Source of the DNA: Hormiphora californensis
Lineage: Eukaryota; Animalia; Ctenophora
DNA: 64,000 nt
Reading direction: 5' to 3'
Assembly (NCBI GenBank): GCA_020137815.1
Contig: CM035355.1
Coordinates: 2,170,001-2,234,000 of the forward strand
The notes beneath the pieces are model-generated. The model saw only the letters and a list, made by a program, of their open reading frames with translations. It was not told where the DNA came from and ran no database searches. A program made the translations under genes and the position numbers. This document shows, in pieces, positions 13,667 through 64,000 of this stretch. Every line of letters begins with the position of its first letter. Positions within the stretch are counted from its first letter, which is position 1.

Positions 13667-14760
13667 TCACTCCAGCTTAGTCACATTATTTTGTGATTTT
13701 CTGTGCAGGTACACTAATTGTCTGCGGAGTGTCTCCCTACATTTCGCGGGTTTGAGATCAAACCTCTCGCCACAAACCCTAACCAGATTGTCAATGTATG
13801 CTTTGTCTAGGTACTGGCTGTGGTGATCTTTATCCCGTTCCTGACGGGCCATCTTTGGGAGATACCGGGGGTCTCCCCACAGCTTCTTTGTGGCTAGCTC
13901 TTCCTCTGTAAATCTCCTTTTCAAACCCTCTCTGAAAGTAATGGGTTGTGATTTACAACAAGATTAGTAACATCTTTACAACTAAACAAGAATTAGTAAC
14001 ATGGGTTGAACAGGTGAGACAATGAGGTTATGAGACTAATATCAAGCGTGGCAACACATGCACTCTATTAGTAACATGGGGGTGTAAAACATTTATATAT
14101 TCGTGTACTTGAGGAATTCGTTGTAGGTAGTAGTGGCACGGAGAGCTTCTCTCATATCCCTTCTCTCAGGATCGGGGTCATCTATCCAGGTTGTATCAGG
14201 TCCAACAACAGGCATGCCAGGCTCATATTTCACATCGGGCATAACACCACCTACACCTCCAGTATGAAGACCTAGGAGAAATTATAAATTGTGATAAATC
14301 TCACCAATTAAAGAAATATTAATAATATTGAAATTATAGCGAATGATCTACAAACCACGAATATTTCGGTCCACACGTTCCAGTTTAGTGGATACCGCTG
14401 AAAACCTCTCGTTCATCTTTTTCCGTAGTTCCAATAGTGAGCCTTGTAGTTTGAGGGTGGCTGCTTCTTGCTGTCTTTGTGACTTGAGAATTCGCATCAT
14501 TAGTTCTCTGTTGTCTAGCAAATTCTGGGGAAAACAAAATTAGTAATCATGGTACTATGTATGTACTATGTACTACTATAATTCTGAGCCCACCAGAGAC
14601 TATCGCAGAAGCAATAACGCCGAATAATAATCATTTGGGATAGAAAAAATCACTTGCATACCAAGTCTTCCAGCTCATGATCATTATCATTGCTATTGTT
14701 GTTGTTAGCGTGTGCACATGAATCCTCCAGCTTCACTCGCTTTGACTCTGCCTCTGACAT
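13667..14760 (-). CDS. Coiled-coil plus C-terminal BEN-domain-like nuclear protein, 4 exons
   Basis: MSEAESKRVKLED... / NLLDNRELMMRILKSQRQQEAATLKLQGSLLELRKK / GLHTGGVGGVMPDVKYE / LKRRFTEEELATKKLWGD...LDKAYIDNLVRVCGERF...RETLRRQL. The last exon matches the BEN pattern (F-x-x-EEL...G...LD...I...V...F). GT-AG junctions. Confidence 0.65.
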
Positions 14761-22500: not shown

Positions 22501-25500
22501 ACCAGCGACAGAACAGTATTATATAGGGGACTCGCTATGACAACTAGTCGGGGTCACGCTAGGACAGTTTGTATTACGACATGTGTGTCTCTATTCCCCT
22601 ACTAATACTATACTATGTATTACTACTCTGTTCTAAGTAATTCATGGTTTTATAAAATCATATTCACTCACCCATAGTTGATCTTGAATCCGTAACCGTT
22701 CTTCTTCCAGTTTCACTTTGGCTCCCTTCACTTCGGCTTCCTTCTCCTTTGCACAGCTCTGTAGGGGAGAGGGGAAGTAGAGGGTATTTCGTGGAAATGT
22801 ATTATTATACTCCACTCATGCAGAATGTTCAGTTTTCTTGTGGGACCCGGGATAATAAAAATTATGATGCGCCTTGTTTTGTATTTGGTATACGTATATA
22901 ATATGTACCTTGTTTTGCATTTGTGATTTTGTTACAATTTATAAAAAACCTTTGCTTCAGCGACTTGAATCTCAAGTTGTAGTTTTTGTTTTTCCAGGCA
23001 AGCCTCGAATTCCTTTTTATTTTCCTCCACCTCAGTGGCGTGGGCTTGTTGTGCCGTATCTGCTTCCTCTACTACTTGTTTTAACCTAGGAAGATATAGT
23101 TATAATTTTCACCGCATTTAGTTCATAACTTCTAAACCCTGCGGTAGTTGGTGGAAGTGAGACCGCTTCACACCTCTCCTTGAACTTGAGCTTACAAATA
23201 GAGGTTTATTGTACCAAAAAGAGATATTCTTTTAATGGTTCCACCTAAAAAGATGTTAAAAAATTCTTCGCCCTAACTTTTCCAAATCCCTCCTTTTCTA
23301 GACTGATGAATTTAGTTGAGATTTCACTGCTATTACTATTGATAACTGCTGGAGATAGCACGATATACCAGGACGGTCATTGGATTAGTGGAAATAGGAG
23401 ACACCTCGCTACCGATGGGGGCCATGGGGAGGGTGTACGCTTCGACTTTGCCATAGTCAACCAGGATACATTACAGCTGTCCCATAACGACACTGGTTTA
23501 CTGGTGGCTGTTGACCCAGAGTCTCGAGAAGTAAGCAACGTGAAGTTATAGAATACTTATGAGTGTGTGGTTACATAAAGTCATGTCGATATATATGATC
23601 AATTGTTTTATATTTCAAGTGCAGTGAAAGTTTACTAAATTTATATTTATCAGATTGTTGGTACGGTTTGTGATGATTTGTTCGGTGCCAAGAATGCTTA
23701 TTTGGTCTGCCAGAGTATGCGCTATAAGTGTGCCTATTGGTGGGGTGCAGCCAGAGGTATGTATATATATATATAGGACCTATAGGTATTGGAGAGGGAT
23801 TGTTCATAATGACTTTTGATAACGTAGAAAAATATATGTTTATTAGAGACATCAGAGTGATTTAGAAATCGTATCTAACCAATCATCACCAATGATACTT
23901 TATAGACAGGGAGTATCCGGAATCAGAACTAAGGAACGAACTTCCCATTGCCATAGATGACTTTGAATGCCCTACTAATGCCAATGAAACACGACACTGC
24001 ACCTCTCTCTCCTCCGTCCATAACTGTTTTCACCCCGAGGACATCTTTATTGAATGTGGTAAGTTCCTCAACCCTCTTCTTTTTCTCAAGTATTTTTCAG
24101 GTCCCACAAATGGAGAATAATTAGTTTTATCATCATTGGTATATTTCGAAGCTCATATCATTTCAAGCACCGCGATTCCTAAATTATTGTACAATTTCTA
24201 GCACCGAATTCTAAAATGTTGTACAATTTCTAGCTGTCTAGCACCGATTCCTCAATTATTGTACAATTTCTAGGATACAGCTGTGATTATTGCTGGTTGA
24301 AGATTGAAAACCTGATGATTCTCCGCTAACACGGCGACTCTTATCTTTTTGAAAAAAATTTCACAAAAAATTTCACAAAAAAAATTCAAAAATTTTTGGG
24401 GGAAAAAAATCCTGTCCCTAAATCGGGGTGTCCCTAAATCGGGGGTCCCTAAATCGGGGTCCGACTGTATATAGGACCTAGGTATTGGAGAGGGATTGTT
24501 CATAATGACTTTTGATAACGTAGAAAAATGTATGATTATTAGAGACATCAGAGTGATTTTGAGTTTAGAGAAATCGTATCAAACCAATCATTACCATGGT
24601 GACACCTTATAGACAGGGAGTATCCGGAATCAGAACTAAGGAACGAACTTCCCATTGCCATCGATGACTTTGAGTGCCCTACTAATGCCAATGAAACACG
24701 ACACTGCACCTCTCTCTCCTCCGTCCACAACTGTTTTCACCCCGAGGACATCTTTATTGAATGTGGTGAGTTCCTCACCGGCCCTCTTTTTTTTCTCAAG
24801 TATTTTTCAGGTCCCACAAATGGAGAGTAATTAGTTTTATCATCATTGGTATATTTCGAAGCTCAAGCACCGCGATTCCTAAATTATTGTACAATTTCTA
24901 GGATACAGCTGTGATTATGAGTTCGCCCTGGTTGACAGACTTGGAAACCCCTCAACTAACAAAACTGGACTTCTCCTCGCTTCCCGGGCACAAACCAGCA
25001 CGGTAAAAATCACCTGACATTTTAATTATTTTGCAATTACAGTCGGACCCCGATTTACCGGGCCCCGATTTACCGGAACCCCGATTTACCGGGAGGATAA
25101 TCTTCCCCCGAAATAGGAAATTAACAGTATTCGACCCCGATATACCGGGCACCCCGATTTACCGGGCAAAACCCTTTCCCCCGAGCATCCCGTTAAATCG
25201 GGGTTCGACTGTATTATTATAACTCGACTCTATCTCTTCTTCGTTGAAGGCTGAGGCTGTTTCAGCCCTGAAGAAGCCCTGAGACAGAGGGATATGTAAC
25301 ACATTAGGGATATATAACACATTACACGAGCCTCTCTACTCTCTTACTACAACCACTTACACCATGTCATGTTTCCCGACTACCCAGAGAGGAACGGTGT
25401 GTGATGACCAGTTCCAGGGCCTATCAGCCAAGATAATATGCAAGGACATGGGATATGATTGTGCCTCCGGGTGGTCAAGTGGGACCTCCCCATCAGCCTT

Positions 25501-44650: not shown

Positions 44651-44790
44651 GTGGAAGCTCTTACGGTGTTCCCACGCCCGTGGGAAAAGAGAGATAGATA
44701 GAAATACTAAGAGAGAGAAAATTCTCTCTTTTAGTATTTCTATCTATCTCTCTTTTCCCACGGTCGTGGGAATACCGTAAGAGCTTCCAC
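44651..44790. mobile_element. Hairpin MITE with TA flanks
   Basis: ta|gtggaagctcttacggt...accgtaagagcttccac|ta with near-perfect arms of about 68 bp. Confidence 0.8.
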
Positions 44791-45001
44791 TAAATGAAAC
44801 TGGCTCAGATTTTTTGGCTGAAAGGCGGATTTTTTAAAACTGTCCTCCCCTTTTTGCATTACGGATCGCTGCTCCACCCCCTTGATAAGATAGAGACTTA
44901 AAATTTAGAGGTTAGGACTATCATGGCAAGTTCTTCCTAACTTCCAAATTTAAAGTCACAATTTTATCAGGAACCAGAAACATCTCTGATACAATACCAA
45001 C

Positions 45002-45331
45002 TTGAGAAAAGCACTGCACTTTCTCCCAGTAGCTGAGAGAATTGAGTTCAAAGTATGTGTACTGGTGTATAAATGTGTCAACGGTGTTGCACCTGGCTAC
45101 TTATCTGACCGAATTCAAAAAAGAAGGAGGAAATCTATGAGTCTCAGAAAAGATGACGACAACCTTCTCTTGGAGACACCAAGGGCTAGGTATAAACTAA
45201 ACGAAAGTGCCTTCAGTGTATGCGGCCCGAAGTTTTGGAACCAATTGCCAAGAAGACTTAGATCTGCCGAATCCTTAAACAGTTTTGAAAGAGATCTGAA
45301 GACGCATCTGTTTGGAAAGGTATTTGGGTAG
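45002..45331 (+). mobile_element. 5'-truncated LINE (L2/CR1 group) ORF2 C-terminus
   Basis: LHFLPVAERIEFKVCVLVYKCVNGVAPGYL...AFSVCGPKFWNQLP..LR...SLNSF...LKTHLF, the typical post-RT tail of L2/Crack-like elements. Confidence 0.88.
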
Positions 45332-47935: not shown

Positions 47936-48396
47936 TTTACGAACTCCTGGGGTAGGGGCAGTTTTTAAATATCAGGAAGGTATCTCTAGTGAAAGAACAG
48001 GGATCGCCGCAATTCTAGGGCCTGGTGGATCCAACGGGTGCACACTGCACACTGCACAGACCTATCGCTTTATGCACATCCCCCGCTGAGAATTTTAGTG
48101 ACTGCCGAGTACCGCATCTCAAATTAATTTGTTTGAAGATTCACACAGGAAAAATTCTAGCACGTGCGCAGAGTTTACGGAGAGAGAAGTTGTCCCTCAT
48201 TCCACAACGTATCCAAATGCTCAGAGAGCTATGCTCTACAGCCTCCAACAATAATGTCCAATTATGTTTCTGAAAGTAATATTCAGTCAATTCACAAGTT
48301 CGTGGAGTGATCCGACAAGCGGTTTTCCCTGCCCAATTGTTACAATTTTACAATTGTTACAATTTTACAATTTCCTAGCAATTTTATAGCACAACT

Positions 48397-50747
48397 ATGA
48401 TGGCCATGCAGCAGATGGATTGTGGTGATTTTCTGGATGACATAGTGGACATGGAGAAAAAGTGAGTAATTTTCATGATCACCCTAGTAATCACTAAGAT
48501 GATTTATTATTAAGTTGACCGTCTATTTACAAATAAATTCCCCGAATTAGAATATGAATGCTATTTTGCCTGTGTACCTCGATATATACCGTGCAAAAAC
48601 TCTTTTCCCAACAACAGATTTGTTTACCTAAATTGTTTCAGTTGTTTTAACGAGGGTTACCAGGAAGGTGAGGTGAAGGGAGCTGCAGAGGGACAAGTAG
48701 AAGGATACAGCATGGGATTCAAGCAGGGTGCCCTGATAGCTCGAGAAATAACAGCTCACCGCTCAATGGCGGTATCCTTACTGGATAGTGGAAAATTTAC
48801 TGGGTAAGGTTGGACATTATTTTCTCTTCTATTATTTAGGCTCAATTGGGCCTTAATTGATCAATTAGTTACCAATAAGGGTGGATCTTTATTGGTAAGC
48901 CACCCTCTGGGTACCCACTACCCACCCCCTTATTGGCATGGCGTCACGAACCCCCCTCCCGGCCCCCTGGGCAAAAGTCGAAGTTTTGCCATTATTTTCC
49001 GATTGAACGCGTTTAAAATAGAAACTTCTTTTTTGTTTTCCCAGTTCCCACCCATTTGAAATTTTGTGAGTTGACCGTACTCACTGTAGCATCAGCCTAA
49101 TCAGCTACACGGCTATGGGACTCTGCTCATGCACAGGATAGATAGTGCATGATCAGAGCAGGCACAGAGAGCTCAGTGGATTGTCAGTAACTTCCAATTG
49201 GTTAGAAAGATCCTGGCAATCACAATGAGCTCCCCCCATAGGGGTGAGGGGACGGAGGAGGGGGGAGGTATAAAATGAGGTTCATCACTCCTCAGGTGGT
49301 AAAATCACACTCCCCTTACTCCTCCGTCACCCTCGATAAAATCTTGTGTTGAACAGTCTCCGTGGTGGTTGATAAAATCTCACTGTTGGTCTCCACTGTT
49401 TACTCGAGTTTGATTTGATCCTCTTCGGATTCTTGTCCAAGAGGGTCTTGACTCTGTTCCTCGGGATCCGAGGTAGGTGCTGGTAGTCCAGTGTTCTTAT
49501 CGGGGTCTTCCTCTGCAAAAGGTCCCACATAAATCACTGTTTCAGCAGCTGGTTGGACTAGGCGGGGGCTATTGGTTGGGCTGGTTACCGGGCTCATGAC
49601 TGGTGTCATTGCTGTGAACGATTCGGTTGATTCAATCATAGTCTGTGTTGTTGACGTCGTTAGGATTGGCCTTTTCCTCTTCAACTCTGTCTCAACAATG
49701 GTTTGCAACTTGGTCAAGGAGTCGGTCACGTGAGCAAGCCTTTTCACGACATTGGCGGTGATCAGCTGTGTATTAGAAGCCATCGTTTTGGATGCTTCTA
49801 GATCCGCAGCATACATAGGCAGCAACATATTGTTGGCCTTGCGGATGGTTTTCTTGATAAACAGAAGGCCTGCTACCATTATCATGGTTAATGTCAGCAA
49901 GGCTGAAGTTAGTAGAATGGTTTCTTGGTCCATGGTTTTGTTTCTGGAAATGTTTTGCAGAGCGGCAAATTCGAAACAAAAGAGGATTGACAAGCGGGGG
50001 ATAAGTTCTGCACGTGCAAACAAACACACAAAACGGGTGGATTATTGTTGCTATAGCAACACGTGCAGATGGGTCCTGCCTTCTTACAATCACACTCAGT
50101 TAGTTAAACACCAAACACTTCAATTTCAAACAAGCCAAATCGGATTGGAGTGAAACTTTCAGGTCTCTATAATTTTCAGAAAGTTGTGTTTTTATCTTAA
50201 ATCTGTCATTCAACTACGTAAGGTAGCCCAGAAAGTTTTACTATATAACTAAGTGTAATTACTAAGACTCTTTATCTACTGAAGTTTTCTCTCCTACTGT
50301 GACCACCCAGTTTACAGGGTGCGTGCATGCACACTGTTTTAACAAAAAAGAAATGAGGGTCAGAGTCAATATCTCATTTGTGAATTTTTTGACACATTTC
50401 CTATTTAGGCGCCTGAAGAAGGCTCTGGAAGGATTGAGGGATGCATGTACTGGGTTTGTCTTTGAAAACACTCAAGATTTAGATGATAGATTCATGGCGG
50501 TATCAGCTAAACATAAACAGGTTTGTGAAACTTTGTTGAAAGTTAGAAATGTGAGTGCAATTAGAAATCATGAACATGTATTTGGTTTGTTCAATCCCCA
50601 GAGAGAGCTGAGAGCTAGAGAGAGGATCGAACCATGTTTTTCTTTCATCAGGTACAATCTCTGCTGAAGGGCTCAGCTCCCAAGAGGGATAGTCCACCTT
50701 CCACAACATCTAACACGGCACCATCTCCTCCTAACCTCTCTTTCTGA
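48397..50747 (+). CDS. LTO1: LTO1/ORAOV1 (ABCE1 maturation factor), 4 exons
   Basis: DFLDDIVDMEKN-CFNEGYQEGEVKGAAEGQVEGYSMGFKQGALIAREI (GX3 repeats), KHKQ-VQSLLK, and a C-terminal LSF stop as in vertebrate ORAOV1. Confidence 0.88.
49400..49933 (-). CDS. Orphan single-exon protein (177 aa) with N-terminal TM helix, nested antisense in LTO1 intron 2
   Basis: catttccAG-aaacaaaacc-ATG; MDQETILLTSALLTLTMIMVAGLLFIKKTIRK (hydrophobic helix then basic cluster), a helical segment, a Thr/Ser/Pro-rich part and an acidic tail. Confidence 0.6.
   Translation of the reverse strand: MDQETILLTSALLTLTMIMVAGLLFIKKTIRKANNMLLPMYAADLEASKTMASNTQLITANVVKRLAHVTDSLTKLQTIVETELKRKRPILTTSTTQTMIESTESFTAMTPVMSPVTSPTNSPRLVQPAAETVIYVGPFAEEDPDKNTGLPAPTSDPEEQSQDPLGQESEEDQIKLE
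50047..50060. promoter_or_regulatory. Perfect palindromic RFX X-box-like motif flanked by CACGTG E-boxes
   Basis: GTTGCTATAGCAAC about 114 bp upstream of the nested ORF's ATG. Function is inferred from the motif only. Confidence 0.45.
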
Positions 50748-51297
50748 GGGAGAGCCTGCGACCAAAAAGGATACCTCAGACCAACCAGTCAATGGAATTG
50801 TTTGCAATATTCTACGACCTCAGATCAATTGTTGGCCACATTCTACGACCCAGTTTCTTTGTTTGCTATTTCGCATACAGATGTGATGATACAGCCCTCT
50901 GTTCCACGACAGGCCCCTCATCAGAGTGGAACAGATACCTGTGTCACAGTTTTGGTGGTCCTTGGCGCGCACGACGCGCGGCTCCCTTGTTTTGAAAGTA
51001 CACCACTTCAGCACTTGTCCCACCTCGCCACGCTACTGAAGTGTGCCGCTGATTGGGTGTGGGTCCTGTTGGGCAAGAGCAGGGGGTCGGGACCCTGTCC
51101 GTTATGTGTGATATGGATGGAAAAGGACGGTTGAAGACTTAAAAACAGGAAGATGAACACCCGTGAAATAGTATTGAACATTTTTTGTACTGATAATTTC
51201 TCTAATGCTACTGTCTATAACATACATCCGATCTCTCCCCGTTCCCTGGCTCTCTTTCGCGGAATCTAACTCCCTATAATTTTCTAAAGTGTAGCCA

Positions 51298-52840
51298 ATG
51301 TGTGAAGAAGAAAAGAGGGATGTATTAAAGCCATATTTTAAGGAATTAAAGCTCGAAGAAAATCTCTCCCAATGTATAAATACTGAGTGTGTGTACTGCT
51401 GCACCCTACAGCGACGAGATGGCAATATTTTAACACATCCTGATTATCCTGGTAGGTTATTTAATTTAACAATGTATCTAAATGTATAATTCTTACACTT
51501 CAATTTTGTAATTTGTTCGACCCTCTCTCCGCGGGGAGGGTTAGATCATAACAAGCAAAATGCACATGATCTAACATAATTCCCCAGGTTTCTACTTGAT
51601 CAAGAATGCTCTCCCTGAGACTACCCTCCGTCAGTTGTATTTGAAAACCCTTCACTGTTACCCGTGTGGCCGATCTAGTAACAATAACATACAACCTGTT
51701 AACGCCGATAATGTCAGGTACTTGATTATAGACTCGTCTTTAACTTAGATCTATATAAGTAGTCAACTAAAAGTACCCCTCCCTTTTTATACTTCTTTCT
51801 TGATTACTAACTACCCCCTCAGATCCAACCTGTCGTGTCTGGGAACACGGCCACCACCCAACCAAACCTACTGGGAGGCAGGCCTGATGGACCAACTCCG
51901 GTGGGTGTCCCTGGGTTACCATTACGATTGGACCAACAGGATCTACACTCCCAATAACCGATCAGATTTCCCCACTTTTCTCAGGGATACCGCTTCCACG
52001 ATTGTTAATCGGTGAGTTATGAGCTAGATATATGAGCTACCTCCCCCTACCGTATATAATGTTTAATTGTTTGATTCGCTTATAAATAGGAATGTATAGA
52101 AGTAATGTTAAGTAATGTCCTTTTAATTAGCCTGAAAATTATTCATAACATGGTTTTATTCACAGGCTTGATCTACCCGCTCTGAATGCTGATTCTGCCC
52201 TTGTGAATTACTACCGACCTAAGGATACCCTGTCCTTTCATAAAGATGATCTGGAGTGGGACCTTACCAAACCCCTCGTATCAATCAGCCTGGGTACGTA
52301 CCACAGATCTGTCCTAGGACTTCAGAACAATGATGAATGATTGAGTAATTTACCTTTAAAAGGTAGGATCCTCAATCATTCATCTGAAGTCTATGACGTT
52401 GAACTGTAGATTCCAATATCCATCAAGTCCAATAATCCCCTCCCCCCCCCCCCATGTTAGGTGTCCCAGGTATCCTCTCAGTGGGTGGTACAGACCGCTT
52501 CACACCCCCAATATCAGTCCTCCTCAATCACGGTGACGTAGTGGTCCTATCAGGTCCATCTCGAACCGCATACCACGCCGTACCTCGAGTCCTAGACATG
52601 TCCACAACGCTATGTGACCATGTTATTCTTGATAATAAAGGTTATGGAGTGACTGTGGAAAACAATGATAGTGAGCATGTGATTAAAAGGGCTCGGACTA
52701 GGAGGGTGGTACCGTGGAAGGATGAGGTCGTGGTGGGACAACTAGATAAACAATTTCCACATGTAAATAAGGAATTTGTGACACGAACTAGGATTAATGT
52801 TAGTATACGACAGGTTCAGAAGGAGTTTCTAGATGAATAG
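51298..52840 (+). CDS. ALKBH1: Nucleic acid dioxygenase ALKBH1, 5 exons
   Basis: LRWVSLGYHYDWTNRIY, ALVNYYRPKDTLSFHKD (HxD), PLVSISLG, GDVVVLSGPSRTAYHAVPRV, RINVSIRQV. Confidence 0.95.
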
Positions 52841-53002
52841 ATGAATTGCTTTTTATTTGTGAATCCTGCAATATTTTATTGCAGGATACTTCAACCACAC
52901 ACTGAATTGCTTTTGTAGATTGAAATTTGTTCATTTCGTTTTTTATCCAGCTGTTTTTTATCGCAACCATCCTAACACAGTCCCTGTTATTTCTAGCAGA
53001 TC

Positions 53003-53462
53003 ATGGCGTTTAGTTGTAGTGTAGAGATCCCATTTCCTAGTGAGAGGCATGCCAGGATAGCTATGAGAAGTGTTGGCGCTGACAAGGAACCAAGGAAATC
53101 AGGTACTTGGAACAAAATACCATGAACATCTCATAATCAGTTACATGTTTGAGAGCCTCATTTGCTGTGCATATATCAGCTTGAAAGTACATAGCAGCTT
53201 TACAGCAAATAACATCATCTGCTAACAGTCTCTAACAGTGTCATCACCCAACTGCTAACTTTGTCATCTAACAGTCTGACCCCCCTCCTCCCCCTGGACA
53301 GGTGTTAAGAGGGAGATGGTTGTGAAGGGAGAGATCCTGCACGTCTCCATCTCAGCAGCAGAACTCCGTCTTTTGAGGGTCTCTATCGGAGCTGTATTGG
53401 AGCACATCAGGTTATCAGTGGATACAATGGACATGTTCGACTGTAAAGATAACCACCCGTGA
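53003..53462 (+). CDS. LAGE3: EKC/KEOPS complex subunit Pcc1/LAGE3, 2 exons
   Basis: MAFSCSVEIPFPSERHARIAMRSVGADKEPRKS-GVKREMVVKGEILHVSISAAELRLLRVSIGAVLEHIRLSVDTMDMF. Confidence 0.92.
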
Positions 53463-53736
53463 AGAAGAAGAGTTCAGAGAAGAAGGAAATCATGACCACT
53501 AAACAAACACTACGGCAAGGATACTCTGAAGGCGCTATACGCGGAAGAAACAGAATGCATGGACCTCGCGTATCTAATTTATTTTATTTGAAGCTTTTAC
53601 AGACAACACCCTTGACCCTTCGATGTTTAACTACTACTTTTACTAACTACTTACTTTTGCGTGAGAGTCTGGGCAAAACCACTCTCCATTATATTACCAC
53701 ACTGACTTACCAACTCCATTGCTTAGTAGCCGCGAC

Positions 53737-54563
53737 ATGGAAACGGTTCAGCAACAGCAGCCAAAGAGGAAGAGACAGAAGACGTTAGCTGAAAAACAGA
53801 CCAAGAAGGTCACTAAGCACGTGCTTGACAACCCGTTTAGGATAGCCTGGCCCAGACACACGTCACAACAGGTATAACAGCCTGGAACAGGCGGCACATT
53901 GTCACAGAATACAGATTAACCAGTTTTGGTTAGATTTGTTCCTTGACTTACTTGTTCCCCTTCATGCCAAATACTTCCATACTATCCAAATAATTACTCC
54001 CTTCTCCTAATATCCCTGAATGCAGGTTGAATCTGTTCTCCTCACCCTTAAAAACTACATAACGGACCACTACTCTGAATCATGCCGAGAGGACCCGTCT
54101 CTCAATGACACCCGTGGGAAACGAGCCACGGGGCACAAGCTGGAACGTGATGGTCACGTGATATTCAGTATAAACCACGTTACAAAATGTTTCGAACGTG
54201 GTAACACCCCAACCCCCCTGAGAGTTATAGTTGTTGAGGAGAGTCTGGTGTCTAGTCACGTGTATGATCATTTCCTTCAGCTCTGTGCCATGTACTCTGT
54301 CCCTCTGGTCCGTGGTCCACTCTCCATGTATCTTAGCCGGGGTCCTGGGAAGGAAACAATTGGGTATTGTCGGGGTGGTGGACCCAGGGTTGGAGTCTCC
54401 CTGATCTGATAGTTCCAGTCCTCCCTCCTGCCCTAGTGGACTGGGACTCTTCCATCCGATGACACTGAGGGTGTTAGATGCAACGCCCAGTGAGGCAGCC
54501 AGGAAAAAGAAGGCACAGAGAGCTGAGAAAAAGAGGTTGAAGAAACAAAATTTGAAAAGCTGA
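53737..54563 (+). CDS. RNase P/MRP subunit RPP38/Pop3-like (L7Ae fold), with apparent frameshifts in the last third
   Basis: KHVLDNPFRIAWP, FSINHVTKCFER, LRVIVV and HFLQLCAMYSVPLV. Plausible continuation (LAGVLGRKQLGIVGVV...LRVLDATPSEAARKKK) is split over several frames. Confidence 0.62.
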
Positions 54564-54808
54564 TGAACAATAGTTTGTACTTTTATTTGTTTTTTAGTTT
54601 TATCTTGTTTGGTTTTTTATGATTCATGATTGTTTTTACCTTCTTTCCCTCCTTCTAATCACACACATTTTTTCCTCCCTCCAATCACCTAACCCCACCT
54701 AGCTTCCCTCCCTCTATTCACCTAACCCCACCTTTCCCTCCCTCTAACCAACTAACCCACCTTCCCTCCCCCCCCCCCAACTAATCCCACCACTTCTCTA
54801 TCTAGGAG

Positions 54809-57800
54809 ATGGTTCGAGGTGATTCCCGTCACTACTCACTCCAGTCCCGTACTAGCAGCGGCGGAAACGGCACCCTAATCCGCTCCACCACCCCGGACCA
54901 GTACGATGACGATGATGACCTCCTCCTCCCTCGCCCCAACTCCTCCAAATCACCACTCTCCAAATCATGCTCCAACCCTCTCCGTCTCATAGTGCTGACG
55001 GTGTTTGCTCTCCTTATCTTCATATCAGGAGCGCTATTCCATCTTCTAGTGGTGTCCCTAGGAGAACCGGTATCCCCGCATAAAATAGACAATGTTGCTA
55101 GTGTGATAAAAGCGAGCAAGGTAAAGGAGTTCCACACGGCTCTCACACAGAACAGTCATATAGCGGGTAGTGCGGAGAATTACAGGCTGGCAGAGTATGT
55201 CAGGGACAGGTTGCAGGAATTCGCTTTTGATACGGTACGTGTGAAGTGGTAACTCTGTGGCAGCTAGGGGCCATGTGTTTGGGTTTTGTGGTTGATGGTT
55301 CTGGGTTCCTTTCTCGGGTTCCTTTCTAATAACATTTTACCCCTACCTTACAGGTGGAGATGAAGAACTATTCAATGAGGTTACCCTACCCCGATCCCGA
55401 GCATCCCAACTCCGTCAAACTCCTCTCCTCTGAAAATGAAACCCTCCTTCATTCTTGTGCACCTCAAGAGACTCCCCTCACAGGTAAACTGAGAGTCACG
55501 TGATCTCCTTATTTGGTAGTGATTCAATCACGTGATCTCCTTATTTGGCAGTGATCCAATCACGTGATCTCCTTATTTGGTAGTGATCACGTGATGACTA
55601 AATATAAATAAGGTTATATTCCAGATTTTGAGAAGACCCACCCCACTACACCTCTATTTAACGCGTGGAGCCTGCCCGGGACAGTGAAGGCCCCCTACGT
55701 GTTTGCTAACAATGCCGAGGAGGCTGATTTTAATTATCTGGAACGACATAACATCTCAGTAAAGGGAAAGGTAAGCAAGTTCTGTCCCTAACTTTTTCAA
55801 CTTGATTTTCTTTAAATACCCCACAAACAAAGTGCTTCCTGCCCTACATAAAATTATAATCCCTCTCTACTTCAGACATTTTACTTCTAACGCTGCCCCC
55901 ACCTCCCTCGCCACTACATCTCTCAACTCCAGATGTAATAACCTCTATTCCCCCCCCCCCCCAGATAGTGCTAGCACGTGTTGGTAGCTCATTTCGTGGC
56001 AATAAGGTCGCTGCTGCAGCTGACCGAGGTGCAGTAGGGATAGTGTTGTTCAAGGATCTATACAGCCCCGAGGAGACGGTTAGGTTCCCTAAGTCAGAGT
56101 GGGCTCCTATCTCTAGTGGGGAAAGGGGCTCTATATCACTGTGAGTTCTATAACAAGGTTCTTGGAACTTTTTCCGTGTTTCAACTTAATTTGAAACTGA
56201 TCATATCCCAGAAGAGTTTTTCAATTTCAGAATTTTGGTTTTTGGATAAAAATAACAGCATTTTAGTTAGGTTACGGTTGGTTCACTTTAACTCCCTCTA
56301 ATCCCCTCTAATTTCTCTCCTTAGGAACGATGGTGATATGGACAGTCCCGGGTGGCCGTCTGTCCTAGATAGCCCAAACAAGAAGACTGGAACCCCACAA
56401 TACACAGCCATTATCTGTCAACCAATCACAGGGGAGGATGCTCAAGTTCTCCTTCGGGCGCTACCTGATAGTGGTGAGTAGCTGGAATTCAGCTTGGATA
56501 TACTTTGAGTTTCATAGAACATTCTCCAATTGTTCAGTATTCCCATTAATGTTCATCTCCTATCTCTATACGGCATACATAAATCTCTCTCCAGGGGTAA
56601 ATCCGGAGTGGAATGTTGGTGTGATGGAGGGAGAGACAATAAACGTTGGAGGAGGGGATGGGGACCCCCCCTTGTTGGAGGTGACCGTGTCCAACGTGGT
56701 CAAGAGGGTCAATGTGACTAATGTTATTGGGACTATTGTTGGGCAGGTGGAGCCTGACCGATGGGTCATACTAGGTAAGGTATTTGGGTTTGAAGTCCCC
56801 TCTCCCTCATGCGCTGTCTCGCACCTCTCATGTAACCCCTCGTTTACTGCTTATGCTGTTGAATACAATCAGCGTTACCAGGAAACCAGAAAGAGAAAGC
56901 CGTTCATATTTATATGTAACATCAGGGCTACTACACAAACACACGAAGTCACAAACATATACCCCCTATATTAGATAACACAAAAAAAAACCCCTGTCTC
57001 CTAGGTAACCACCTATCTCCTAAGCTAGGTAACAAACATACACCCCCTCTCCTAGGCAACCACCTGTCTCCTAGGTAACCACCTGTCTCCTAGATAACAA
57101 ACATATGCCCCCTGTCTCCTAGGTAACCACAGAGATGCATGGACCTACGGGGCAATCGATCCCGGCAGTGGGACAGCTGCTATGTTGGAAGTTGCTAGAT
57201 CTCTGGGGGAGTTCCTAGAGAAGGGTTGGAGACCGAGGAGGACCATTAAGGTTGCCAGTTGGGATGCTGAGGAATGGGGTCTCATGGGTTCCATTGAGTG
57301 GGTGGAAGAATACAGGTACAAATACGTGCTAGCTTTACCCTCTCTCCAGAGTCCAGACCAGGAGGATATGATAAGACTGTGGTCTTTCCTTGTGTGGCGT
57401 TTTTGTCCAATTGTTTACTCCCCATTCTCACAATCACACTCCCCCCTCTCTCTCTCGCATGTAGATCTCATTCTCACAAACACACTCTCTTGCAGGTTTC
57501 CTCTCCGTTCCAAAGCCGTTATCTATGTTAACACTGATGTTGCTGAGGGTGGACACTGTCACGAGGTTATGGCGTCTGGTTCCCCCATGTATGATAGGTT
57601 AACAACGGGGGTACTGAATAAGGTTAACGGAGTTAACGCATCTACAGCTCTCCCTCTCTCCGGAAGTAAGTACTGCACTGCGTTTTGATCTGTGAGGCCA
57701 ACTATTTTCCCATTAGCTACCTCCTTCCCAGTTCGTCGCCAGTTGGTCGCCCCTCTCCTTGTCTGTGTAGGAGATGAGGCGCGAAACATTGCACGCAAAC

Positions 57801-59238
57801 ACAAAGGGGCGCGAGGTGCCTAACCCCTCTCCTGGCATCCCACCACCCTCACCGTTACTATATATTTGAAACCACAGCTTCTAACCAATCACCCCCTCCA
57901 GGTGGTTCTGATATGTTTAGTTTCTACTGCTACGCGGGGGTATCTGTAGTTGATATCAACTGTAACTCATTTGATAATGTGTACCACACACTACATGATA
58001 ACAGACACCTGTTGGACCTGGTTGATCCTGATTATAAGAGTCTTGCTAAAGTGGCTTCTGCACTTGCCCAGGTAAACCGGTGCTCTGCTGAACATAATGT
58101 GAGCTACAGTGTGAGATACACAGGTAAAACTGTATGGAGAGGTGTGAACGCCAAATTCTCGTTTCTATCAAATAAAAGCGATGCGCCGACGAACTGACCG
58201 CCAGCCCTCTCGTGCACTTTATGCCCACTCTGTGTCTTTCCCTACACTGACATCTCCCTCTCCAGCTTCTCTCCTATAATTATAGGTTGTTGTGACCCGC
58301 CTCCCCCTAAATTATCTCTCTCTCTCCTAGGTTGTGGTGAATGCGAGTGAGAGTGTGTTGATACCGGGTAATGTTGAGGTCTACGCAGCCCGGATCTCAG
58401 AGTGGTGGTTCCAACACAGACCAGGTAATTAATTAATTAGTAATTAGTAACTAGTCGGTGGGTTGATTAATCCCAGATGGCAGATAAATTATTCAGTATA
58501 TCAATCATGATCTACCGAACGTTTTGATAATAACGGTGTGAGCCACAAAATATCAATCCTGTTTTTTTGTTGAACTAATAACACCCCTTCTCCCATTAGG
58601 TCTGGTTGAGGTTCTAATCAAGCTGGGGGAGAAGGAAAGTGCCCTGAAACCGGTAGATACTGCTATCTCAAATCTCAATGAAGCTGCCAAGCAATTCAAG
58701 GTTAGTGCTACAACTAGTGACCTAACTTTCACCCTTTTCATTGAAAGTCTTATTCACATGTGCGTCATTTCTATGAAACAAGTATGAAGTACCCCCTGAT
58801 ATCATCTCTATCCCACAGGCGAATGTATACGACCCCCTTTCTCCTGAGAGCGACCCTGCGGAGGTGAGACGGGTAAACGACATTCTCCTCCAATTCGATA
58901 GGGTCTTCCTGACTGATACCCAAGTCCCTGGGACTAACTCCTTCTATTCTCGGCACCTCCTCGTCTCTCCCAGTGCTGATGATATCTACTCAGGTAGGGG
59001 TGACAATATTATGACGTTACTAGAGATTGTCAATAATTTATTATTCATTGGAAACAATAGTTTTGTCGCTAGATGTTCTATAGGTATTATATACCATATC
59101 ATTCCAGGAAGTGGCTTTCCATCTCTCAAGTGGCTTGTATCAAAGAAAGACTCGATTACACGGGATCAGGTTTTGTATCAGTTAGAATTAGTTAGGTGGT
59201 CGGTCAAGTCAGCTAGGGACATTTTATTGTTCAATTAA
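54809..59238 (+). CDS. Glutamate carboxypeptidase II / NAALADase-like M28B peptidase, type II membrane, about 12 exons
   Basis: N-terminal [117 protein letters not shown]. Confidence 0.93.
56993..57130. repeat. Degenerate tandem repeat of a splice acceptor plus exon start (cctgtctcctAG-gtaaccac)
   Basis: About 6 copies precede the functional acceptor at ~57122 of the GNHRDAW exon. Confidence 0.8.
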
Positions 59239-59535
59239 TTAAGTTACTTTAGTTAATAAAGTTACTGAGAATTAACAATTTGTTGCTTTTAATGATACTT
59301 AATGTTATTTAATTGTTGTGGTGAAGTAGTATTTAAAAATTCGTTGATTTTCAGCGAATAATATTGTTTCTGTATATACCCGCTTTTAGCTTTACACTTT
59401 TACTTATTACAGATTAAACATTCTTGATTTATTGTTCCCCTCCCCCACTATCCACTGAAGGACGAGGAAACTTCCCAACTTCCCCAATCAGCAGCTAATA
59501 ACTCCCCACACTCTAGCTCTCTACTCCAATATACC

Positions 59536-61216
59536 ATGTCATTTCTGGATGAGTTGACGGAGCTCACCAAGACAGCTCCATCCATTGACCCTGAACTTGT
59601 GGGATTTGCTGATGAGAATGCCTTTCTATCCGCCAAGGGAACGGTAAGATATTGAGTAGAACCCGATTCACTAACCTCGAATTTAACTAAAAATTCTGCA
59701 CCCCGAACCATGTGTGTATATTCCGCTCTAACCCCAATATCCCCACTAGGCACGTCCCTATCACATCCTTGATGACGCTGACATGGGTAAACCTACCTCT
59801 CGGAAGGAGCTGTGGGGAGAGGACACCACCCAGGCAGATGATGGAGCGGTAGCTGCGCTGGCAAGGAATCTGGATGAGAGGCTAGATAACTTAGGAAGTG
59901 AGGATGATGAGAGTGATATTGGAGATGATGAGAGTGGTAATGATGATGAGATGGTAGAGAGTGATAGTGAGGAGGGGGAGGGGTATGAGACTGGTGATTC
60001 ACAGGAGGAGGAAGGAGAGGAATCACCCGAGGAGGAAGAGGAGGAGGAGGAGTTGAAGATTGTTAAAAAGGTGGACGGTGCAAGTGAGGAGATGAAGCGG
60101 GCTGCAGTTAAACACCAAGTTACCACATGGGATAGGTTGGTTCAGTTGAGGTTAAAACTACAACCCTCCCTTCAAGCTGCTTCTAGGCTGCCCTGTGCTG
60201 CTAAGAAGGCTAAATACATGTCCGGAGATGTCTCACAGGTAAGAGATGAGAGAGTTTTCAAAGGGAGTAAGCCCCTCTTTGATTAGAGAGTTTTGTTGAT
60301 TTCTTTTATCGCAAATTTGATCCCTCCTAGTACTCTTTAGTAGTTGATCACAAGTTCTCTTCCCAGTTCTCTCTAATGCAGAATGTCCCAATCAATAACA
60401 TCTGTCTCTCAGGGTCACCGTCAAGCCATCATCACCAACCTCCAGCACTCTCTAGACCAACTATTGGATCTGAAAGAGGCCCTTGTGGATGGGAATAGGG
60501 ACATCAAGGCTACAATGTCAGGCAAGAAGCAGTCCAGTGGAGAAGGTGACGATGAGGAGATACCCTCAGACACAGACGAAGAGAAATCGGAAGAGGAGGA
60601 TGAGGAGGAGGAAGAAGTTAGGCCAAAACGGAAACGAAAACAACCCTCTGATTTTTATCAGTCACACCTTGTGGAGCAGGGTGAAAAGTTTGAAAAGTTC
60701 AAGTCAGATACCATTTCCAAGTGGTACGAGCAGACTAAAGTTGTCGCTAAGAAATCTTCATTCATGAACAAGGAAACAACCGTAATAGATCAGATAAATC
60801 ATATCTTGTCCAACAAGGAGCGGCTAACAACCAGAACCCTTCAAAACCGGAACTCTGTTCACGTGTTCGGGGAAGGAACAACCGGGGAGGATGATAATAT
60901 CTCAGAGAACAGGGAGTTCTTCAACGATGACGACTTCTACCAACAACTTCTCCGTGAGATAATAGATAAGAAGATGGGGGCTATAGATAAGAGTGATCCA
61001 GATGCGATGGGGAGGCAATGGGTGGAGCTGGAAAAGCTGAAAATGAAAAGTAAGAAGAAAGTGGTGGATACGAAGGCTAGTAAAGGTCGGAAAATGAGGT
61101 ATGAGGTTCATAGTAAGTTGCTGGGTTTTGTGGCACCCATTTCGACTGAGACTCTCTCTGACGCGAGGCAGGATGAACTGTTTAAGAGTCTTTTTGGAGG
61201 GTGCAAGAAGTTGTGA
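59536..61216 (+). CDS. AATF: AATF/Che-1/Bfr2 ribosome biogenesis factor, 3 exons
   Basis: Acidic N-region, AVKHQVTTWDRLVQLRLKLQ, FFNDDDFYQQLLREII, KKKVVDTKASKGRKMRYEVHSKLLGFVAP, DELFKSLFG. Confidence 0.95.
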
Positions 61217-61383
61217 GAGAGGGAGAGATCGTTAATTTATTGAATGTCTTTTATCCATTTTTAGACTCAGGGTTACAGTCACCCTGTCACCATATAACTT
61301 GGTTAACATTTTGTCAACTTGAAATTCCCACTACTAACCCTCTATTCATTTATCTAGCTATCATGACGTAAAAAACTACTGTA

Positions 61384-63214
61384 ATGGCGAGTAAGAGACT
61401 TCAAAACCCGGCCAAGAGGCCTCCTATTAGGCAACCTGTGTTTAGTGTTAAAGCCCCACCTAAGCTAGCTGCAGGAGCCCCTCCCATGGACAGGTAATAG
61501 CACTCTTCAATACACAGTTGGTGGTAAAGTAGGGTATTAGATTAGCACTCTTTATTGTGTCATCGGATAACCTCTCGATAAATTAGGGAGAGTCAAGTTA
61601 TTAGGAATCCTCAAACGGTCCTTCTCTTACTAGGACAGTGAATCGCCAAGTTAGTTTAGGGAATGAAGTGGAATCTTTGGTAAAAATGTCAACTTGATCT
61701 AATTTATCTAGTTCTGCCAACTTCATTCTCCTCAGGTTTCTGAATTTTGGGCATCGAGTTCTCCACCAACTGACGTGTACTACGTTTCGTAAGATTGTAG
61801 TGGGATCTTCTCTCTTTATCTTCCCTATGGGGAAACACTTCCTTGAATACAGGTGATATTTCCTTCAATTCCGTATGAAACAACTCCAATCTTTCAATCT
61901 GGTCTCATTTCTATCGATCTTATTCTCCTGACTCCTCTGCAGCAGCTCCCTCTAAAACCCACCCTAATCTAATCTATATCCCACATCAGGAACACCCGGT
62001 ACAACTACCAAGTACAGCAGTCCACATTCTTCAAGGATACTCTGGAGTGTGTTAAAAGGAGTGGGGATGTTCTGGGAACGTATGGTAGGGAGATAAAACT
62101 GGGAAGAACCAGCATCTGGACCATGACATCGGGATTTGTGCCTTGGGTGAGTTAGTAGTCCTAATTTCACGCTCCCTGTCTCCTGACTCTTACATTACAT
62201 CCTCTCCCCGCCTCTCCCCTAAAAACTAAACCCCCCCTGTAACAGCTATCAGAGCGACATGTTTGGCTGCGTTTCCATGGTAACCACGGGGAAGGATGGA
62301 TCAGGATGGGTCTCTCCCGTTCTGACTTTGTGATGGAACAGGAATCAGTTAACGATCTGGCAAGGGATTCTAAACGGCAGATGAAGTTAGAGTTACAGCG
62401 GATCCAGGAGCTGGCAAATGAGGCAACTGGTGGGGCAACGAATGACGCGACTGGTGGTGGAGCAACAGAGGAGGCAACTGGTGGTGGAATAAGGGAGGAG
62501 GTTGCTGCAGTTGCTGAGGTAGCAGTTGGTGGGGTGGAGTCAACAGTCGATACTACTGAGGTAAGTCAACTGACTATCTGTTGAGTTGTTTCAACTGTTG
62601 CTTCTACCTTCAATAATTTATCTATTGTCAGGCTGTTATTCAAGACAAAGTTGAAGAAGAATCCCCGGTTGAAGAGGACACAGTAGCAATAGACGAGTCA
62701 ATGGGGACTGCTTCTATATTTGAGAAGATTGCTAAAGCTAAGGAAAATGCAGACAAGAAACAAATGGACCAGGTAGGCATGGTCGGGAGAGAAAACAACT
62801 TCTTTTCTAATCTCACTTTCACCCGTTTTTCTCTCTTTCTTTTCGTTTTCTCTAAAATGATTTTCCCACAATCAGGCCAAAATATATAAACGAGAGTTTA
62901 AGAAACTCTACCCAACGCTCCCTGATGATTACACCCAAAACGACCTCGACGAGGCCATGAAACTCCGGCAAGACAAGGAGGTTGACCTGGAGCTATTCGA
63001 CCGAACATGGAACCTCCGCTCAGTCACCATTCACCCAGAGAAAACCACGAACGAGGAAACTCCGCCAGTGTTTGTGTTGCTGGACCTAGATAGTGATTAT
63101 GAGGATGTGGAGCATGGGCCAACGGCATACCTTCTTAGGACTCCTTTCTTTTCTATACCCAAACCACGATCCTGGAGACCCGCTGTTGAAAAGAGATTAG
63201 TAGAATTGTCATGA
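61384..63214 (+). CDS. Uncharacterised protein, 5 exons
   Basis: MASKRLQNPAKRPP.../NTRYNYQVQQSTFF.../LSERHVWLRFHG.../AVIQDKVEEE.../AKIYKREFKKLYP...RLVELS joined by GT-AG introns. No family recognised. Confidence 0.7.
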
Positions 63215-63353
63215 GAGAGACATGTGTGTGTGATTTGTAATTAGAGTTTTGTACCTGTTAAAATTAATTTATGATACCGAGAAGATGTATAATTTTCTCG
63301 GGACCCATTCCCACTTCTTGTCATAAATCCTAACCCCCTTTTGTTTTCTAGCC

Positions 63354-63896
63354 ATGTTACACCGTATTCTCCTCCTCACCATTCTCCTTCCCGCCGTTAT
63401 TGTCTCCAGTGAAGGACTGTTCAACTTCAAGAACGGCTTCCCAAGTGTCACCAAGATATTCAGCTCTATGGGCAAGATGATGAACGACCTCTTTCCCTGT
63501 GGATACAGCTGTCCGAATGGTGGATATCCAACCGCTAAACTGGGATATAAACCCACCCCTAACGGCTGTGGATCGATTGATACCACCATGTTTGCCCGGG
63601 ATCTAGCCAGCTATGTCCCACAGGTGGAGCAGTGCTGTAACGTGCACGATGAGTGCTACGGAACGTGCTCTAGCGGTAAAAACAAGTGTGATGGAGCCTT
63701 CAGGGAGTGTTTGAGGGGAGTCTGTACTACTGCTAAACAGCTGATAAAGGCAGTGGGAGGGAAGTTTGATGTGAGTGAAATGTGTGAGGCTGCTATAACG
63801 GGGGTAACGGCTGTAGTTCAAACTGGGGGATGTCCTGCGTATAGGAGTGCACAGGAGGCTGCCTGTGTGTGCGCTAGTGGTCCTAATGAACTGTGA
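63354..63896 (+). CDS. PLA2G12A: Group XII secretory phospholipase A2, single exon
   Basis: Signal peptide, PNGCGS, CCNVHDECYGTC (His-Asp present), KNKCDGAFRECL, GCPAYRSAQEAACVC. Confidence 0.9.
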   Translation: MLHRILLLTILLPAVIVSSEGLFNFKNGFPSVTKIFSSMGKMMNDLFPCGYSCPNGGYPTAKLGYKPTPNGCGSIDTTMFARDLASYVPQVEQCCNVHDECYGTCSSGKNKCDGAFRECLRGVCTTAKQLIKAVGGKFDVSEMCEAAITGVTAVVQTGGCPAYRSAQEAACVCASGPNEL

Positions 63897-64000
63897 GAAT
63901 TCAGCAAAACTCTTTCACGCCCTGACTTTGATATTGACTCACTTTTGGTGCTAAATGCTAATGACTCACTTTTTGACTAAATAATTTAATCCCCTAATAA

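Follow-up and report, generated by a model that had tools for sequence, protein, structure and literature searches.

A head-to-tail string of eight Hormiphora californensis genes with candidate trans-splice acceptors: a possible ctenophore operon region

Eight genes lie head to tail on the plus strand of a 64,000-nt stretch of the Hormiphora californensis genome (contig CM035355.1; the window), with one antisense reading frame nested in the first of them:

48397..50747, plus strand: LTO1-like gene; 4 exons, 151 aa; first gene, without a branch-point acceptor
49400..49930, minus strand: antisense ORF nested in LTO1 intron 2; intronless, 176 aa; no family found
51298..52840, plus strand: ALKBH1; 5 exons, 326 aa
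53003..53462, plus strand: PCC1 (KEOPS subunit); 2 exons, 86 aa; Pfam Pcc1 above cut-off
53737..54563, plus strand: L7Ae-family RPP38/Pop3-like gene whose 3' end is uncertain (54563, or else 54409)
54809..59238, plus strand: GCPII/NAALADase-like M28 peptidase; 13 exons, 746 aa; Pfam M28/TFR_dimer above cut-off
59536..61216, plus strand: AATF/BFR2; 3 exons, 466 aa; Pfam AATF/TRAUB above cut-off
61384..63214, plus strand: unnamed (orphan) gene; 6 exons, 392 aa; weak Coa1 match, E 0.024
63354..63896, plus strand: PLA2G12; intronless, 180 aa; Pfam PLA2G12 above cut-off

Recomputed stop-to-start gaps are 550, 162, 274, 245, 297, 167 and 139 bp, which reproduces all seven distances of the original prediction, and one open GT-AG spliced frame was obtained for 7/8 genes. 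The exception is the RPP38-like gene, for which no open two-exon frame reaches the proposed stop at 54563. Reaching that stop would take indels or a weak 73-nt intron; failing this, the gene ends at 54409 and the following gap grows to 399 bp. Its L7Ae-family assignment stands as a lead, with RPP38 as a candidate identity from Atlas Pop3/L7Ae scores of 0.86-0.88; exon 1 had no match in the PDB. LTO1 was identified from a weak Yae1_N match (Pfam, E 0.009) together with homologues, its exon 2 finding no PDB match, and ALKBH1 from a 2OG-FeII oxygenase domain above the Pfam cut-off and a PDB match (E 1e-6). The suggested functional clustering in tRNA or ribosome maturation amounts to a housekeeping bias like that of other animal operons rather than to one pathway.

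The seven spacers, and the edge of the window, contain the following elements:

50748..51297, plus strand: LTO1-ALKBH1 spacer; 550 bp, CpG-rich (possible internal promoter); branch A 51269, AG 51289
52841..53002, plus strand: ALKBH1-PCC1 spacer; 162 bp; branch A 52975, TCTAG 52996
53463..53736, plus strand: PCC1-RPP38-like spacer; 274 bp, first half CpG-rich; branch A 53705, AG 53726
54564..54808, plus strand: RPP38-like-GCPII spacer; 245 bp, T-rich, no CpG; branch A 54784, TCTAG 54805
59239..59535, plus strand: GCPII-AATF spacer; 297 bp; AATAAA at +16; branch A 59498, TCTAG 59516
61217..61383, plus strand: AATF-orphan spacer; 167 bp; branch A 61337, TCTAG 61357, then a 2-codon uORF
63215..63353, plus strand: orphan-PLA2G12 spacer; 139 bp; branch A 63333, TCTAG 63351
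63994..63998, plus strand: CTAAT at the window edge; would be the branch point for a ninth gene, which in Mnemiopsis is MAK16

The stop-to-AG distance is 137-278 nt in six of these spacers, and AATAAA or ATTAAA occurs in only 1/7. CpG density reaches 40 and 36.5 per kb in the LTO1-ALKBH1 and PCC1-RPP38-like spacers, close to the 35 per kb found upstream of LTO1 (the presumed promoter), and is 0-14 per kb in the remaining five. By this proxy, the data suggest that two of the seven spacers may contain a promoter. No conserved RNA structure was detected in the spacers (best z -1.8 across 10 segments), nor any Rfam match at gathering score between 44 and 64 kb.

The acceptors before the ATGs differ from those of ordinary introns. 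Four acceptor/ATG strings quoted in the original prediction each occur once, at the claimed starts. The branch motif CTRAY lies 18-21 nt before the first AG near the ATG in 7/7 downstream genes versus 7/28 cis introns (Fisher p 5e-4). Scored as CTRAY followed by a first AG at most 45 nt from the ATG, the signature is present in 7/8 genes and in 4.3% of 2100 ATGs (P 2e-9), the 17-23 nt spacing window having been picked after inspection of the data. With an untuned spacing of 12-40 nt, 13% of ATGs carry CTRAY/AG (P 5e-6), and the enrichment persists in all three looser settings (P 5e-6 to 2e-5). TCTAG is found at 5/8 starts as compared to 0/28 cis acceptors (p 1.5e-4). A pyrimidine tract plus AG had been described before each ATG; the AG is confirmed, with the branch motif in 7/8 genes, whereas tract scores are modest at LTO1, ALKBH1 and PCC1 (0.3-4.5 bits; cis median, 9). 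The acceptor signal resides in the branch motif. Among six other starts, one shows the tight signature, first genes and wider-spaced starts being mostly without it. CEP112, located 164 bp behind a methyltransferase-like gene, bears the same CTRAY/AG signature, and the SRCR gene nested at 23306, on the strand opposite its host, has CTAAC and TCTAG at a 25-nt spacing.

The internal spacers hold no strong donor: the best scores 3.6 bits, while 25/28 true donors score at least 5.3 bits, and over 1375 nt of spacer approximately 4 sites at or above that value are expected and 0 are observed. LTO1 differs from the seven downstream genes, for which the predicted orphan acceptor holds, in having no CTRAY and a 5.7-bit donor 103 nt upstream:

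48276..48389, plus strand: possible cis 5'-UTR intron or outron of LTO1; donor at 48276 (5.7 bits), AG at 48378 and at 48389

Ctenophore spliced-leader (SL) trans-splicing was reportedly described by Derelle in 2010. The available text of PMC8527503 bears out this premise of the original prediction: it publishes a ctenophore leader for the family of the source organism and reports that reads carrying a leader make up at least 56% of the Hormiphora Iso-Seq data. For the phylum, a single abundant leader that ends in TGAG is established. In the window, one partial copy was found:

48118..48137, minus strand: 20 nt matching the 3' half of the ctenophore SL; next bases AT, not GT; no intact SL RNA gene

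An SL RNA gene at this position was rejected, since only the 3' 20 nt match, no GT donor follows, and the 5' half was not found there; the wrong strand and missing GT also rule out the fragment as a shared cis exon. Rfam contains no SL family. A metagenome scan with AATF returned five loci, of which only one, L001, is ctenophore-like (L002-L005, at 39-44% identity, were left out); a scan with PLA2G12 yielded 0/135 candidates. L001 is an intronless AATF contig that falls in the ctenophore clade with tree support of 100/100. It begins with TTTTAATTGAG, a leader-like 11-mer ending 4 nt before the ATG, for which the chance by composition is about 4e-4; the 11-nt match is one base off the published leader motif and could be an unspliced acceptor. 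In an RNA run (X1) from a relative approximately 80-85% alike, for which 3 and 29 records were aligned, one contig starts with the leader 3' end. A single-cistron GCPII contig from this run (species ~80% alike) extends ~304 nt beyond the stop; here, the stop-to-acceptor distance is 278 nt. Among the X1 pieces listed, none lies over any gene's 5' end and none joins two genes. Relatives of LTO1 on 2626- and 2728-nt contigs, and of PLA2G12 on a 2787-nt contig, have short CDSs and might represent read-through.

The branch motif with its AG, the donor-free spacers, a phylum that uses a leader, and the leader-like start of L001 together make it very likely, as judged from sequence, that the seven downstream AGs receive the leader by trans-splicing. 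An orphan acceptor indicates trans-splicing and not co-transcription, because the antisense SRCR gene, which must have its own promoter, displays a similar signal.

Gene order provides indirect evidence for co-transcription. Synteny was compared for 2/8 genes, AATF and PLA2G12. In Mnemiopsis, ACHWQZ_G014382 (AATF) and G014380 (PLA2G12) share a 17,080,198-bp contig and, by locus-tag order, are separated by a single locus (G014381), as here. The G014380 model fuses PLA2G12 to MAK16, and fused gene models are a known operon artefact (PMC7986045). In a second assembly, AATF (P0037) and PLA2G12 (P0006) each lie on a 1,359,039-bp contig. A search with ALKBH1 exons for relatives' loci gave no candidate, and none of the LTO1 relatives has a locus tag.

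With the short spacers, this retained proximity and the fused PLA2G12-MAK16 model indirectly support co-transcription of most of the genes in at least one multi-gene operon, a reading to which we assign a probability of roughly 60%. The string would be transcribed as polycistronic pre-mRNA, in one unit or a few multi-gene units, and would be resolved by 3'-end cleavage and SL trans-splicing at the branch point and AG before each of the seven downstream ATGs. A strong branch motif may compensate for the absent U1-bound donor, and promoters are presumably lacking from the five spacers that are short and poor in CpG (ALKBH1-PCC1, and those from the RPP38-like gene to PLA2G12). The most secure core runs from the RPP38-like gene to PLA2G12 and probably continues into MAK16 past the window.

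The same acceptors could also serve compact monocistronic genes, each with a small promoter in the spacer or the upstream 3' end, a short outron and leader trans-splicing, with no polycistronic RNA. Given a leader on at least 56% of Hormiphora reads (PMC8527503), acceptors of this kind would be expected at most genes in any case; the SRCR gene, nested but independent, shows a similar signal, and two spacers are CpG-rich. However, the other five spacers are CpG-poor, and in four spacers the 3' UTR, promoter and outron would have to fit into the 137-242 nt between stop and AG, little room beside the median Ciona outron of 458 nt (PMC11155486). The tight signature is likewise confined to 1/6 other starts, being absent from first genes and wider-spaced starts, and AATF and PLA2G12 have stayed close in Mnemiopsis although microsynteny between the lineages is reported to be limited. 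We consider separate promoters throughout unlikely.

Ordinary cis-splicing is improbable, whether each AG closes a 5'-UTR intron that has its donor and promoter in the upstream gene, the transcription units overlapping, or a single upstream non-coding exon is joined in cis to alternative genes. Three acceptors do have unused donor-like sites (5.8-7.9 bits) within the last exons of the preceding genes, 234-316 nt upstream, and the donor in the LTO1 flank sits at an intron-like 103 nt. For the ALKBH1, GCPII, AATF and PLA2G12 acceptors, however, no donor in the 400 nt upstream exceeds 4.9 bits, the acceptor signature is unlike that of cis introns, and the sole leader-like copy found has the opposite orientation and no GT. 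That the AG motifs reflect chance or start-context bias in a gene-dense stretch, with no splicing role, would fit the modest tract scores at three acceptors and the tuned spacing window, but P <=2e-5 in all three looser settings makes this highly implausible.

Within the co-transcription model, transcription of all eight genes from one promoter is the weakest part, given two CpG-rich spacers, the lack of an orphan acceptor at LTO1 and the nested antisense ORF, which would bring an internal promoter; we regard it as doubtful. LTO1 may be the first cistron or may stand apart as a gene of its own. Equally tentative is an extended version, in which an operon of at least nine cistrons (LTO1-MAK16) has been partly kept for ~180 million years and uses a dedicated acceptor code, CTRAY/18-22 nt/TCTAG, distinct from that of cis introns.

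Ctenophores are known to trans-splice a leader; no report of operons in them was found in the literature searched. The available text of PMC8527503 deals with leaders and with first exons that seem to be shared rather than with operons, and contains 0 occurrences of "polycistron". If the model is correct, ctenophores would be the earliest-branching animal phylum added to the lineages in which leader trans-splicing led to polycistrons, bearing on whether operons arise convergently wherever a leader exists. Annotated 5' ends would then not equate to promoters, which would affect regulatory work based on chromatin loops or single cells; trans-splicing goes unmentioned in the main text of PMC12221973. 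Neighbouring genes are merged in ctenophore gene models, as with PLA2G12-MAK16, and the 139-bp spacer could act as a linker for bicistronic transgenes.

Several known systems resemble this arrangement. Operons of Ciona intestinalis and Oikopleura dioica (PMC7986045) also join co-oriented, unrelated genes at short spacing, use one unspecialised leader for monocistronic and polycistronic RNAs alike, and reach ~7 genes in Ciona. They belong to another phylum, their intercistronic distances (median 1 bp in Ciona, ~31-57 bp in Oikopleura) are of another kind than the stop-to-start gaps given here, and the CTRAY/TCTAG signature was derived from this window. In C. elegans (PMC7986045), 3'-end formation and trans-splicing likewise resolve polycistronic RNA at a spacing of ~100 bp; that system needs a specialised SL2, of which no sign was seen here, and the present spacers have canonical AATAAA in 1/7. 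Paraspadella gotoi operons (PMC12460157) share the housekeeping bias and comprise genes <250 bp apart with leader evidence, the longest having nine genes; those were validated with SL reads, whereas the present string is known from its sequence and 3/7 of its stop-to-start gaps exceed 250 bp. The RFC140/flp operon of Hydra (PMC3273482), another non-bilaterian, has a spacer below ~400 nt, a T-rich tract and a trans-splice AG; it is experimentally proven and holds two genes, as compared to up to eight or nine predicted here. In Hydra, a spacer that by itself drove no reporter nevertheless allowed a downstream reporter to be expressed (PMC3273482). Ctenophore SL trans-splicing itself (PMC8527503) shares both phylum and leader and would account for the orphan acceptors.

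The arrangement of the eight plus-strand genes between 48397 and 63896 is real and non-random, and it constitutes a candidate SL-resolved animal operon. Gene models with exon ends snapped to GT-AG afford a single open frame for seven of the eight genes and reproduce all seven stop-to-start gaps of the original prediction. The RPP38-like gene is the exception, as its frame reaches the 3′ end only with indels or with a 73-nt intron that is weak. The frame breaks at 54330-54450, and plausible coding sequence goes on outside it, owing either to indels in the assembly or to a small, weak intron. The names ALKBH1, PCC1, M28 peptidase, AATF, and PLA2G12 are firm. LTO1 is named from a weak Yae1_N match and a relative covering exons 2 and 3, and its exons 1-2 are an almost full match to a protein of Pleurobrachia bachei. 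Atlas and PDB L7Ae matches make RPP38 a possible identity, to be read as a lead, and the orphan gene shows a weak Coa1 match and nothing else. PLA2G12 shares 49% identity with a cluster that includes KAL5254912.1 of Mnemiopsis leidyi. AATF is placed in a 9-row ctenophore clade (support 100/100) in a tree of 21 rows, for which hits P0009, P0013, and P0015 (of 21) were swapped for named cluster members or omitted. The LTO1, PLA2G12, and AATF results together point to a Pleurobrachia-like ctenophore as the source of the window. LTO1 also hosts an open frame for which no relatives were found:

49400-49930, minus strand, intronless antisense ORF of 176 aa inside LTO1 intron 2, its N-terminus hydrophobic

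CACGTG occurs twice upstream of this ORF and once upstream of LTO1.

In all seven downstream genes, the branch A of a CTRAY motif lies 18-21 nt ahead of the first AG, which is itself 2-26 nt ahead of the ATG. Among 2100 ATG triplets, 4.3% show the same configuration, as do 7 of the 28 cis introns of the string, although this tight spacing window was chosen after inspection of the data. With a looser spacing of 12-40 nt, 7/8 starts carry the motif versus 13% of ATGs (P 5e-6), as do 13/28 cis introns. A TCTAG ending is found at five of the eight starts versus none of the 28 cis acceptors. The 28 introns were also used to build a donor matrix, by which 25 of the 28 true donors score at least 5.3 bits; in 1375 nt of internal spacer, where about four strong sites are expected, no site exceeds 3.6 bits. 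Donor-like unused sites in the last exons of upstream genes count against orphan status for three of the seven acceptors. The proposal that an orphan acceptor precedes every ATG is not clearly borne out at LTO1, where the CTRAY/AG configuration is absent and a donor of 5.7 bits lies 103 nt upstream. Tiny ATG-stop uORFs lie between acceptor and main ATG in the orphan gene (61363-61371, plus strand) and in CEP112 (~43385, minus strand).

Among six other gene starts in the window, the tight signature appears at one, CEP112, which belongs to a second co-oriented string, listed here with a separate inverted repeat:

44412-7970, minus strand, intronless methyltransferase-like gene, CEP112, gene 14760-13667, and USP39-like gene
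44664-44778, long MITE-like inverted repeat with sub-threshold miRNA-type Rfam matches

The 164-bp gap between the methyltransferase-like gene and CEP112 bears the branch/AG signature, and the starts of gene 14760-13667 (no Pfam match) and the USP39-like gene have an AG ahead of the ATG without CTRAY. CEP112 hosts nested plus-strand SRCR and GPCR genes, and the SRCR gene carries CTAAC and TCTAG spaced by 25 nt. Because the SRCR gene bears a similar acceptor yet must own a promoter, the acceptor alone is no proof of an operon. Adjoining, unrelated minus-strand genes at 14760 and 13179 share similar N-termini, MSEAESKRVKLE and MSEAKRIKLE. The inverted repeat adjoins a fragment (44990-45331) that has no Pfam match and that we take to be reverse-transcriptase-like.

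CpG density, a weak proxy for promoters, ranges from 0 to 14 per kb in five of the spacers, and reaches 40 per kb between LTO1 and ALKBH1 and 36.5 between PCC1 and RPP38, versus 35 in the LTO1 flank, suggesting possible internal promoters in these two spacers. AATAAA or ATTAAA occurs in only one of seven spacers, and the first part of the spacers is T-rich (11-16 T per 20 nt). None of the spacers gives a better fold than its shuffled versions. An 11-bp perfect hairpin (52863-52887) lies directly 3′ of the ALKBH1 stop, in a spacer whose overall fold is not significant (z -1.8). The 550-bp spacer holds a GC-rich open frame of ~80 codons (50880-51134) behind an AG; it has no Pfam match and may represent an additional small cistron or exon.

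Traces of the leader were seen in X1, a sequence run, presumed to be RNA, of a divergent relative (~80-85% alike), in which one contig begins with the leader's 3′ end. The X1 GCPII contig (2530 nt) is a single cistron extending ~304 nt beyond the stop; in the window, the full distance from stop to acceptor is a similar 278 nt, which gives a cross-species hint only. An intronless ctenophore AATF contig, L001, starts with TTTTAATTGAG, followed by 4 nt and the ATG. This start is similar to the AATTTGAG/TGAG end of the published leader. The match is short, though, and an unspliced acceptor could also account for it. The window itself contains a leader-like element:

48118-48137, minus strand, 20-nt stretch that copies the 3′ half of the leader and lacks GT, located 260 nt ahead of LTO1

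Its plus-strand reading is complementary to the leader, and it is probably a retro-copied or decayed leader.

Synteny was compared for AATF and PLA2G12. In Mnemiopsis, these are ACHWQZ_G014382 and G014380, on a contig of equal length in both cases; if tag order follows position, one locus would lie between them, as in the window. In a further assembly, both are on contigs of 1,359,039 bp. In the G014380 model, PLA2G12 and MAK16 form one gene, so that in Mnemiopsis another ribosome-biogenesis gene follows PLA2G12 on the same strand; the fusion in the public model (P0004, KAL5254912.1) is probably an annotation error. At the window's end, CTAAT stands at 63994, the position expected of the next branch point. 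Colinear blocks common to Hormiphora and Mnemiopsis comprise at most four genes (PMC8527503), and the split between the two is dated to ~180 million years ago (PMC12221973).

These data allow us to propose a mechanism. Most of the string would be co-transcribed, the 3′ end of each cistron would form in the initial T-rich stretch of the spacer, and the leader would be added at the AG. For want of a helping donor, the strong branch motif would itself bring in U2, as expected from general spliceosome biology. Trans-splicing is very likely, and we assign a multi-gene operon a probability of roughly 0.6; transcription of all eight genes from one promoter, as originally predicted, is doubtful.

SL-resolved operons are already known in animals. 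Ctenophore operons are described as not reported in PMC7986045, and term searches found no mention of trans-splicing or operons in the main text and four of six supplements of PMC12221973 or in PMC11797021. Among the openly accessible papers listed by the literature searches, none was seen to report ctenophore operons, so novelty in this phylum is probable rather than certain. Five genes of the string act in tRNA or ribosome maturation, with RPP38 a lead. These five would be in keeping with the bias towards housekeeping genes described for chaetognath operons (PMC12460157).
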